From the NCBI GenBank assembly GCA_000004985.1, contig GG738876.1: a DNA stretch of 64,000 nt; one strand, given 5' to 3'. The stretch is from Naegleria gruberi (Eukaryota). Both the position numbers and the translations under genes were made by a program. Positions 51,000 through 53,713 of this stretch are shown piece by piece; within the stretch, counting starts at the first letter, position 1, and each line of letters begins with the position of its first letter. The notes beneath the pieces were generated by a model that saw nothing but the letters and a program-made list of their open reading frames with translations, ran no database searches and was not told where the DNA came from.

Positions 51000-51060
51000 A
51001 TTAGTTGTTGTTTTAGTGAACAGGCTCTTAACCTTGTGGTCGTGGGTTCGACCCCCAGTT
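51000..51060 (+). pseudogene. Decayed tRNA-Lys(CUU)-derived remnant. The 3' half is recognisable, the 5' half is degenerate and the acceptor stem cannot form.
   Basis: CAGGCTCTTAACCTTGTGGTCGTGGGTTCGACCCCCAG matches the anticodon loop CTCTTAA and the GGTCGTGGGTTCGAGCCCCACG T-arm of eukaryotic tRNA-Lys(CUU). Upstream, only a TAGTGAAC D-arm vestige remains. The B-box-like GGGTTCGACCCC sits at 51044..51055. Confidence 0.4.
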
Positions 51061-51206
51061 TAAAGTAATGGCAAGACTACTTTTACCAACATTGGAAGGA
51101 GCAATTAATAGAATTCTTGCCCAGTTAATCTTTTCTGATCGTTTTTTGAGCTCTACGGTTTCCCACATAATTTAGGTTTCCAATGTAAATTAGAAAAATT
51201 AAAGAA

Positions 51207-51216
51207 AAATTAAAAA
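51207..51216 (-). terminator. RNA polymerase III terminator (T5 then A2T5 run) at the SRP RNA 3' end
   Basis: Minus-strand ...GACUAAUG followed by TTTTTAATTTTTC. Confidence 0.6.
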
Positions 51217-51550
51217 CATTAGTCTGACTCCCAGATTTCACTCTCTGTTAGCTCATGCTCAGTTCTGCAATCTGACCATCCTACAGTGTGAAGGCTATGA
51301 TTTGCTCAGTTATCCTGCCTCAACCGGTTCACCTTTCATTAGGACCCTAGTTTCTCCTTATTCATGGGGAGGTACTATGGTCACACCGCTATTGGCGCAG
51401 ACAGAACATCGTCACCATATTGCTAACAGAGGAATGAGTCTGAAGAACCATCCCTTTGCCTGACGCTGTGGCAGAGAACCATCACAGCTACCTCCCTACA
51501 GTAGCCCAGCTTGTCTTTGTGGATAGATCTAGAGGTAGAAGAGTGGATCT
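51215..51550 (-). ncRNA. 7SL/SRP RNA: Signal recognition particle RNA (7SL/SRP RNA) gene. The 3' end is defined by the terminator; the 5' end is approximate (51510-51555).
   Basis: The minus-strand sequence contains the helix-8 core AAAGGUGAACCGGUUGAGGCAGGAUAACUGAGCAAAUC (compare human GGGGUGAACCGGCCCAGGUCGGAAACGGAGCAGGUCAAAAC). It also carries the conserved CAAUAUGGUGAC and an Alu-domain hairpin GCUAC-UGUAGGGAG-GUAGC whose loop ends in GGGAG. Helix 5 is supported by perfect pairing of CUCUGUUAGC with GCUAACAGAG. A T5 terminator follows directly. No ORF conservation; the ORF at 51423..51635 is spurious. Confidence 0.75.
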
Positions 51551-51582
51551 GATCGTAAAAACCTGATTTGATGTGGTTCTCA

Positions 51583-51634
51583 AATAAAAAATATTTTAAC
51601 CTTATCATGATCAATGGATTATTTGATGACGTCA
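51583..51634 (-). promoter_or_regulatory. Candidate SRP RNA upstream promoter elements: a perfect CRE/ATF palindrome TGACGTCA (51627..51634) and a TATA-like TATTTTTTATTT (51583..51594)
   Basis: The elements lie about 30-85 bp upstream of the inferred 5' end on the minus strand. Vertebrate 7SL genes use an upstream ATF/CRE-like element, which makes this arrangement suggestive. Confidence 0.35.
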
Positions 51635-51659
51635 TTTGGCTTTCAAGGGATTAATAATG

Positions 51660-53150
51660 TTAGTATTGGTAAATCTTGTTAAGCCACTCCTCGCCAAAGG
51701 ATAGAGTTATTAAACAAATGAGAAAGCAGGTGGCCATCTTTCCATTCATTTCTGTGGCAAAGTATCTTCCAATGAAAGGAGATGCATCACTGAGTGAGCT
51801 TTGAAAGAGAGACATGCCACCGAATGAGTAATTTTCATCACTTAGGGACAAATGGAGAGCTGGTGGTACATAATTGCTCTTACTGCAACCTCTAAATTCA
51901 TTATCATTGTCATATGAAATGGAAAATGATAACCTAGTCGCCTCCTTACTTGGCCAGTGAATAAAAAGTGTGGCATCTAGTTTATCGTAGGAATATTCGT
52001 GACTGGTTGAGTGGTCTATTATACAGGTATTGGAAAATATGTTGGTTATAAATTGGTTGAATACACAGGGATTATTCGAGAAATGAGGTTTAAAAGCACT
52101 CACAATCTTTGTGAGTTGAGCTTGGTGTGGAAGTTGAAGCAAGTTGGCATTGTTCAATACGGTGAAGAATTTCCAATTACCAATTCTGGAAGAAACCTCT
52201 TGAGGTAGGCTAGTTCTTAACTTGTGAATGTATCTCCATACTAGATTATTGGATAATAGAGTTGACCACTCCTTGCTTAACATTGACATGAAATTCAATT
52301 CTTTTCCAGATAAGTAGCTCATGATATTAAGCACAATATCAGTGGAGAAGTATTGTTTCTGTATCTTAACTCCTTCCAAAGAAGAAATATCAAATGCTAA
52401 ACTAGTATCATCTGAATTGATAAGTTTAAAATCAATTTCCTGATCCTTAAAGAACTTTTTCAAAATCAAAGGTTGATACAGAATTTTGTGAACTTTTCCA
52501 GCTAATTCTGCAATATTATCTACAACACATGTGAAAATCTTATTGTCGTGGTTGGAGCAACAGATTTTTTGAACAGCAAGTAGAATGTGCTCATCGAGAT
52601 TATCAATATCCATCCAAGTATTAAATCTTGGAAGGATAAATCCACAAACCTGCTGAGCAATATAATCCCATGATTCTTGATAGAATTCAATATCATCAGT
52701 CGATTTTAACTTCCTCTTGATGGGAGATGTTTTGAAAACATCCTTCAATCGTTTCATATTAGATGGTAATATCTCATCACAGAGCATATCTTTTGTAATA
52801 TTGTAAGGATAATTATTGGTGACAATCTGTGAAACAATATTAATAGAAATTTCTCTAAACAATTCACTATCGGTATTTTGATGGGATTTGAAGAGTGTTT
52901 GTAATACTGTCACTTTGATCAACCTATCATAGTATATAAAATCAAGTGGATCGGTAGCAGTGTCAAATGGAGGGTTGAGAAATGCATTCTCGAGCTTATT
53001 AATCATCCTAATGAGTGAAAAATCATTCAAGTGAATTTTCCATTTTTCCATCTCAATATTTTGACAAAGGTGGGATCTTTTCAATACTTCCAATAAGCTT
53101 AATGGCGCTAAAAATGCTTTTTTAAAGAAAGGTACCGAAACCTTTTCCAA
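51660..53150 (-). CDS. F-box-domain protein, 3' ORF (496 aa) of a probable split gene with 53165..53713. The two are joined either by an 80-bp GTTTGC...AAAAG intron (53142..53221) or by a 1-nt frameshift.
   Basis: F-box-like motif IVLNIMSYLSGKELNFMSMLSKEWSTLLSNNLVWRYI. The ORF opens with a TTG only. An in-frame splice ...KDWKEIS|VSVPFFKKAFL... is possible. Confidence 0.5.
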   Translation of the reverse strand: MEKVSVPFFKKAFLAPLSLLEVLKRSHLCQNIEMEKWKIHLNDFSLIRMINKLENAFLNPPFDTATDPLDFIYYDRLIKVTVLQTLFKSHQNTDSELFREISINIVSQIVTNNYPYNITKDMLCDEILPSNMKRLKDVFKTSPIKRKLKSTDDIEFYQESWDYIAQQVCGFILPRFNTWMDIDNLDEHILLAVQKICCSNHDNKIFTCVVDNIAELAGKVHKILYQPLILKKFFKDQEIDFKLINSDDTSLAFDISSLEGVKIQKQYFSTDIVLNIMSYLSGKELNFMSMLSKEWSTLLSNNLVWRYIHKLRTSLPQEVSSRIGNWKFFTVLNNANLLQLPHQAQLTKIVSAFKPHFSNNPCVFNQFITNIFSNTCIIDHSTSHEYSYDKLDATLFIHWPSKEATRLSFSISYDNDNEFRGCSKSNYVPPALHLSLSDENYSFGGMSLFQSSLSDASPFIGRYFATEMNGKMATCFLICLITLSFGEEWLNKIYQY

Positions 53151-53164
53151 TATTTCAAACGATT

Positions 53165-53713
53165 TTAATCATTGCAATATTCAATCTCAATAATCGATCC
53201 ACAATTCAATTGAAGGCAAACAGATATTTCCTTCCAATCTTTTGGCAAAATTTCATTAATTCTCAAAGTTACTTCCTCTTCGCTGTCATCATTCAAATTT
53301 TCATGGGTGAAATTCTGAACCTTGATCAAGTAATTAATTCTCACCTCTCGAATAACCTTACCACTACTCGATATCAATAACTCTTTCAATGATCCAATAT
53401 CCATACACACCAAATCCCAATCACTTTTATCAATATTCAAAAATCTCTTCCGACTCTGCTTCATAATAAAGTGATTTCTATAGAGTGTATCATCAAACAT
53501 CTCTAAATTAGTATCCTGATAGTATTCTATTAAAGCCCTCGAGCCAATCAATAGAAAATCAAGAGGAGGAATCTTTTCTTGATCATCATTGTACCTCTGT
53601 TTTGATGGAAATTCCCTTTTTAAAATGTTGATCAATTCATCAACACTGATCACTCTCATCCATTCCGTTAGTGATAATTGGCGATTATCATCACTAGTAT
53701 CGTGTTGAAACAT
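53165..53713 (-). CDS. Hypothetical protein, 5' ORF (182 aa) of a probable split gene, continued by ORF 51660..53150
   Basis: True ATG at 53711. It ends in a TAA that overlaps the opening of the downstream ORF inside the sequence GATTAAAATCG. The downstream ORF has no ATG near its 5' end. Confidence 0.5.
   Translation of the reverse strand: MFQHDTSDDNRQLSLTEWMRVISVDELINILKREFPSKQRYNDDQEKIPPLDFLLIGSRALIEYYQDTNLEMFDDTLYRNHFIMKQSRKRFLNIDKSDWDLVCMDIGSLKELLISSSGKVIREVRINYLIKVQNFTHENLNDDSEEEVTLRINEILPKDWKEISVCLQLNCGSIIEIEYCND

Follow-up and report, generated by a model that had tools for sequence, protein, structure and literature searches.

The locus holds the gene for the cytosolic SRP (7SL) RNA of Naegleria gruberi, a canonical eukaryotic RNA of ~299 nt encoded on the minus strand of the 64-kb stretch of DNA that was analysed as a whole (hereafter, the window). 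We consider it very likely that the locus is explained by this gene (51510-51212), by RNA polymerase III as the enzyme that transcribes it and, as a weaker lead, by an upstream promoter element represented by CCACATCAAATCAG, with the motifs that the original prediction had flagged upstream being incidental. The gene itself is an ordinary housekeeping gene that is found by any Rfam scan, and it is already known, since an earlier covariance-model search (PMC8321541) reported, as a positive control, a 7SL homologue from the nuclear genome of N. gruberi. The only mildly new item is a first hint of a short upstream block common to the 5S, U2 and SRP genes of Naegleria. Should the block prove general across the genome, the small-RNA promoter would be defined in a lineage from which none is known to have been characterised, and Pol III expression cassettes for Naegleria, such as those for guide RNAs, could be designed more easily.

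Identity and architecture of the SRP RNA gene

When the whole window was scanned against Rfam, SRP RNA was matched once, by RF00017 (Metazoa_SRP), on the minus strand at 51509..51212; the score of 98.2 bits exceeds the gathering score of 70, and the E-value is 1e-23. The match is untruncated, covering model positions 1-299 of 299, and the gene, with its terminal U5 counted, occupies 51212..51510 (minus strand, 299 nt). Permissive E-value scans of both halves of the window revealed no credible further small-RNA gene. The call of an SRP RNA gene at this site, made originally from the sequence, was thus right, and the strong conservation of helices 5 and 8 claimed with it is supported by the RF00017 alignment.

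Both domains of the RNA are complete, the Alu domain with helices 2, 3, 4 and 5 and the S domain with helices 6 and 8. In the covariance-model alignment, the Alu 5′ domain (51465..51510, minus strand) consists of helix 2 (GCUG/CAGC), helix 3 (GGCUAC/GUAGCU), the motif UGUGAU and helix 4 (UGG/CCA); posterior probability is high across model positions 1-45, and the pairings can also be read by eye. UGUGAU is the counterpart of UGUAAU in the model, a UGUNR-type motif. Helix 8 of the S domain, the SRP54-binding region, aligns at 51290..51337 (minus strand) with a posterior of ~1.0 and keeps the internal-loop motifs GGUGAACCGG, AGG and AGCA in that order. Its apical loop is GAUAA (51314-51310, minus strand), five nucleotides long, with one U inserted relative to the GAAA of the model; a GNAR tetraloop closing helix 8 is typical of eukaryotic SRP RNAs, without being strictly defining.

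Folding 51510..51212 by minimum free energy (-98 kcal/mol, z = -1.98) produces, independently, the long rod of helix 5, closed by the 5′ and 3′ parts of the molecule, and the branches of helices 6 and 8; the small Alu hairpins are not reproduced in this energy-only fold. Compared with the eukaryotic SRP RNA represented by RF00017 (clan CL00003), the Naegleria RNA has the same Alu domain, helix 5 rod, helices 6 and 8, length of ~300 nt and 3′ U-run, whereas it differs in having GAUAA rather than GNAR as the helix 8 loop and several non-canonical pairs in helices 5 and 6. It also comes from a heterolobosean, while the model is named for Metazoa. On every tested feature, with the helix 8 loop as the one oddity, it belongs to the eukaryotic SRP RNA family, and it would serve as the scaffold for the SRP proteins in co-translational targeting to the ER. 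A heterolobosean thus keeps the canonical Alu domain, which its trypanosomatid relatives are not known to keep.

Ends of the transcript and the polymerase

The covariance model has its position 1 at 51509, and G51510 completes the pairing of helix 2. With the entire Alu 5′ domain aligned from 51510, the 5′ boundary is placed at ~51510, and the model points to a mature 5′ end at G51510, give or take ~2 nt, which was set as +1 for all distances given here. The primary transcription start would lie at, or very near, this mature end. The original prediction had described the 5′ boundary as ambiguous and had weighed starts at ~51550 and ~51460; this description fails, as helices 2, 3 and 4 and UGUGAU all lie at 51510-51465. 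With the Alu domain complete from 51510, both of the proposed starts are disfavoured: the one at ~51460 would cut away helices 2-4, and with the one at ~51550, the RNA would gain a leader of ~40 nt, superfluous to the model and, as far as we know, unprecedented for 7SL.

At the other end, three T5 runs can be read from the minus strand at 51216-51212, 51209-51205 and 51198-51194 (together 51194..51216). The first of them is the end of the RF00017 match, so that the SRP gene ends in a T-run of the Pol III type, and the other two follow within 22 nt. Such an arrangement is what a Pol III terminator usually looks like, the first run presumably acting as the terminator and the other two as back-ups, and this signature, together with the known biology of 7SL genes, argues for assignment of the gene to Pol III. 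In the scheme that we propose, RNA polymerase III would transcribe the SRP gene from a start at or near the mature 5′ end, and transcription would stop at 51216-51212, with two more T5 runs lying behind.

A candidate upstream element shared with 5S and U2

The intergenic promoter space of the SRP gene is limited to ~150 bp by the stop codon (51660..51662, minus strand, from the ORF list) of its upstream neighbour, the F-box protein gene NAEGRDRAFT_69040. The likeliest promoter element within this space would be CCACATCAAATCAG at -66/-53 (51563..51576, minus strand; given also as CACATCAAATCAG, -65/-53). It emerged as a candidate when the upstream regions (130-160 nt) of the window's four small-RNA genes were compared, namely, SRP, tRNA-Glu(UUC) (58845-58916, plus strand), 5S rRNA (59529-59647, plus strand) and U2 snRNA (59868-60059, plus strand).

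The 5S and U2 genes carry the similar blocks TCACATCACGAACAAACAGAAT (59470-59491, plus strand, -59/-38) and TCACTTCACAACAAACAGAAT (59815-59835, plus strand, -53/-33), respectively. These blocks, 21-22 nt long, conform to TCACWTCAC(N0-1)AACAAACAGAAT, the extra base being G, and the window contains two matches to this pattern and no more, against 0 expected. Because the flanks of the two blocks do not align, the block looks like a discrete element rather than the trace of a segmental duplication. It may represent a promoter element common to genes of two polymerases, Pol III for 5S and Pol II for U2.

The SRP candidate CCACATCAAATCAG is a shortened version of this block. Formulated as CACATCA-N(0-10)-AANCAG, the shared pattern has two occurrences in the window, found only upstream of SRP and 5S, compared to 0.20 expected, and none of 100 shuffled sequences contained at least two copies; a caveat is that the sequences on which the pattern is scored, few in number and from three genes only, are also those that gave rise to it. 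The only match of the CACTTCA variant in the window is the one upstream of U2. In 230 kb of Naegleria and Willaertia DNA, only two other matches to the pattern were found, both in coding regions of other species. When any 7-mer allowing for one mismatch and lying at the same position within +/-8 nt was sought as common to all four upstream regions, resampling produced such a positional motif in 5.6% of random sets, and in 0.2% of them when AT-rich seeds were left out.

CACWTCA starts at -65 in SRP, at -58 in 5S and at -52 in U2, and this spacing, varying by ~13 nt, is loose for a PSE-like element. Moreover, no copy of the element precedes the 5S and tRNA genes of W. magna or the tRNA genes of N. 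fowleri and N. lovaniensis. We treat CCACATCAAATCAG as the most credible candidate for an SRP upstream promoter element, a lead rather than a result. That CACWTCA-N(0-5)-AANCAG, located ~35-65 bp before the start, might be a general promoter element of small-RNA genes, serving U2 (Pol II) as well as 5S and SRP (Pol III), is a tentative proposal which we judge rather unlikely to hold in that generality. Equally doubtful, to our minds, is the further step of regarding such an element as the heterolobosean counterpart of the PSE, USE or DUSE, although, if this were true, the SRP gene would depend on it and not on a CRE or a TATA-like box. Our literature search found no description of Naegleria small-RNA gene promoters or of an element of this kind.

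The concept has a parallel in the DUSE, defined as [AT]CCCA[AT]AA, located ~60-63 nt upstream of small non-coding RNA genes and described only for dictyostelids (PMC3188802, PMC7919456). There, too, one short element lies upstream of small-RNA genes of different polymerases, and this concept may carry over to Naegleria, whereas the Naegleria candidate has another sequence and looser spacing. As a separate observation, an identical 10-mer, TCTTCACTTC, is present at -57 of the tRNA and at -56 of U2.

The main alternative is that the SRP gene possesses an internal promoter of type 2, from which TFIIIB would be recruited without a specific upstream element, leaving all upstream motifs incidental, CACATCA..CAG included. 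Animal and yeast 7SL genes are generally known to use internal control regions (PMC7279448), and a consensus scan of the Naegleria gene found an A-box-like TAGCTGTGATGG at +21/+32 and a B-box-like GGTTCTCTGCC at +31/+41. This alternative would also accommodate the variable spacing of the upstream candidate and the fact that it was not seen upstream of Pol III genes of the relatives. However, the A-like match (one mismatch) and the B-like match (two mismatches) overlap, instead of being separated by the usual 30-60 bp, so that, judged on sequence, they do not make a convincing type 2 arrangement. In addition, the 21-22 nt block of 5S and U2 greatly exceeds what chance would produce, and this speaks for a use of upstream elements by the small-RNA genes of Naegleria. 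We regard an internal promoter as a possibility of some substance, yet a distinctly minor one, and continue to prefer CCACATCAAATCAG as the lead.

Upstream motifs flagged earlier

Mammalian 7SL genes carry the CRE consensus TGACGTCA at -51/-44, and their TATA-like box, with the consensus CTCTAGTA, occupies -31/-24 (PMC7279448). The original prediction had proposed a vertebrate-like arrangement of this kind upstream of the Naegleria gene, together with a DUSE-like sequence. The motifs themselves are there: the palindrome TGACGTCA at 51627..51634 and ATCCACAAAG at 51515..51524 (minus strand) were confirmed exactly as described, and the T-rich TATTTTTTATTT is likewise present, but it lies at 51582..51593 (minus strand), one base off the coordinates 51583-51594 given for it, and is unremarkable among the comparable runs of the window. 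It is the arrangement that does not survive, since the distances are wrong. TGACGTCA lies at -124/-117, ~73 bp farther upstream than the mammalian CRE, and the T-rich run lies at -83/-72, ~50 bp farther upstream than the mammalian TATA-like box. Given that the host is a heterolobosean, the comparisons with both CRE/TATA and DUSE are drawn from distant lineages.

What the Naegleria locus does have in common with the mammalian promoter is a perfect TGACGTCA octamer upstream and, near the start, the sequence CTCTAGAT (51527..51534, minus strand), which agrees with CTCTAGTA at 6 of 8 positions. At -24/-17, however, CTCTAGAT is 7 bp nearer the start than the mammalian box, and its likeness to CTCTAGTA is possibly due to chance. 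At -30 of the SRP gene there is no AT-rich element; the stretch -40/-15 has only 56% A+T, compared to 72-84% in the other three small-RNA genes of the window.

The frequencies of the flagged motifs differ in what they allow us to say. The window has a single TGACGTCA, with 0.58 expected, and at least one copy is present in 45 of 100 shuffles; the a priori chance of finding a perfect TGACGTCA within ~150 bp of a 7SL gene is nevertheless ~0.001 (from 0.58 per 64 kb), and its presence near the SRP gene is therefore not trivially dismissed. It is probably not a CRE of the 7SL type, and it might conceivably be a functional bZIP site at an unusual distance. The T-rich TATTTTTTATTT belongs to the A/T-only run 51582-51599; the 64-kb window has 101 such runs of at least 12 nt. 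At its position, TATTTTTTATTT is too distant upstream to be a TATA-like box at -30. As for ATCCACAAAG, which at -14/-5 adjoins the start site, it has two exact copies in the window, where the related 7-mer WCCAYAA occurs 72 times. Both TGACGTCA, 26 nt past the stop codon of the upstream gene, and the T-rich run lie in or beside the 3′ end of that F-box gene. Most likely, TGACGTCA, the T-rich run and ATCCACAAAG are all incidental to the SRP gene.

Transcription could in principle begin at ~51550-51560, in which case the T-rich run would act as a TATA-like box at about -30, TGACGTCA would be a CRE at ~-70, and a leader of 40-50 nt would be removed from the transcript. In its favour, a start at ~51555 would place the T-rich run at ~-38/-27, TGACGTCA is the sole copy in 64 kb, and -30 relative to 51510 holds no AT-rich element. 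Yet even then, only the T-rich run would reach a mammalian-like position, the CRE still being at ~-70 rather than at -51/-44; the comparable A/T-only runs in the window number 101, the covariance model requires no additional 5′ sequence, and to our knowledge, 5′ processing of 7SL RNA has not been described in any organism. We consider such a leader improbable. Still less probable is that the locus is a non-expressed or redundant pseudogene copy of the SRP RNA, given that its conserved motifs and helices are all intact, its score is well above the gathering threshold, its terminator cluster is proper and it has a promoter-like element in common with the neighbouring small-RNA genes. Finally, a start at ~51460 with ATCCACAAAG as a DUSE-like element at ~-60 is scarcely conceivable, for although ATCCACAAAG resembles the two-C DUSE variants of some dictyostelids (PMC3188802, PMC7919456), relative to the start at 51510 it sits at -14/-5 and not at ~-60, it has CC and not CCC, WCCAYAA is as common in the window as noted above, the host is Naegleria and no dictyostelid, and the Alu helices 2-4, aligned with high posterior at 51510-51465, would be deleted.

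Genomic neighbourhood and comparison with relatives

Among Discoba, the best-studied relatives of Naegleria are the trypanosomatids, in which the 7SL promoter reportedly depends on a divergent upstream tRNA gene, a finding ascribed to Nakaar et al. in 1994. A tRNA-derived sequence is found near the Naegleria SRP gene as well, namely, a tRNA-Lys-like element at 51001-51064. In contrast to the trypanosomatid arrangement, this element is downstream, convergent and degenerate, and what adjoins the SRP gene upstream is a protein-coding gene, with its 3′ end, rather than a tRNA; in addition, the Naegleria RNA retains the canonical Alu domain, which is not known of its trypanosomatid counterpart. The tRNA-Lys-like element (plus strand, ~150 bp beyond the SRP 3′ end) appears as a pseudogene or fragment, with the T-arm/B-box GGTTCGACCCC intact and the D-arm and anticodon stem weak. 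ARAGORN detected it only at a lowered threshold, and Rfam reported none.

Three protein-coding neighbours were used to look for SRP loci in relatives by synteny. By way of the F-box neighbour, a W. magna locus (L001) was reached which is without an SRP RNA gene. The ABC-transporter neighbour led to loci of N. lovaniensis (L002) and W. magna (L003 and L004) that hold 5S and tRNA genes only, and to a short ENA contig (L005) without an SRP RNA gene, while the loci of the myotubularin neighbour in N. fowleri (L123 and L124), N. lovaniensis (L125) and W. magna (L126) hold only a tRNA. Pattern searches were similarly negative with respect to SRP RNA. A specific helix 8 pattern had no match in metagenomes; a looser pentaloop pattern matched 117 metagenomic loci, none of them homologous to SRP RNA by blastn or nhmmer, and 0 of 17 tested pentaloop-pattern loci had an Rfam SRP match. 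Two scans of prokaryote genome contigs with SRP-derived patterns gave 0 and 14 matches, respectively, and the 14 were without SRP homology by blastn and nhmmer.

Two of the protein-coding neighbours could be matched to known N. gruberi proteins. The ORF at 51663-53150 (minus strand) is 100% identical to NAEGRDRAFT_69040, and the myotubularin-like ORF at 55909-58404 is likewise 100% identical to an N. gruberi protein. A dictyostelid source, which the DUSE-like motif, a GC content of ~34% and the N-rich ORFs had seemed to favour, is rejected by the protein identity to N. gruberi. In the F-box region, two adjacent ORFs on the minus strand, 53713-53165 (182 aa) and 53150-51660 (496 aa), lie in different frames only 14 nt apart; the annotated N. 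gruberi protein has only 375 aa, and the Willaertia orthologue has 709 aa. The ORF pair at 51660-53713 points to a gene model that is incomplete, to a frameshift or to an intron of very small size.

The tRNA-Glu, 5S and U2 genes of the window are clustered within 1.2 kb on the plus strand (58845-60059), with a gap of 220 bp between 5S and U2. Neither 5S nor U2 is present at the myotubularin loci of N. fowleri and N. lovaniensis, and the upstream regions of the tRNA genes of these two species do not align with that of the N. gruberi tRNA-Glu. The tRNA itself recurs in all three species, ~270-440 bp upstream of the myotubularin gene and divergent from it, at 9662-9733 of L123, 1336-1407 of L124 and 9685-9756 of L125, corresponding to 58845-58916 of the window. 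Its anticodon is UUC (Glu) in N. gruberi and, read by eye, UUG (Gln) in N. fowleri and N. lovaniensis. With unalignable upstream regions and a different tRNA, these loci have no bearing on the shared motif.
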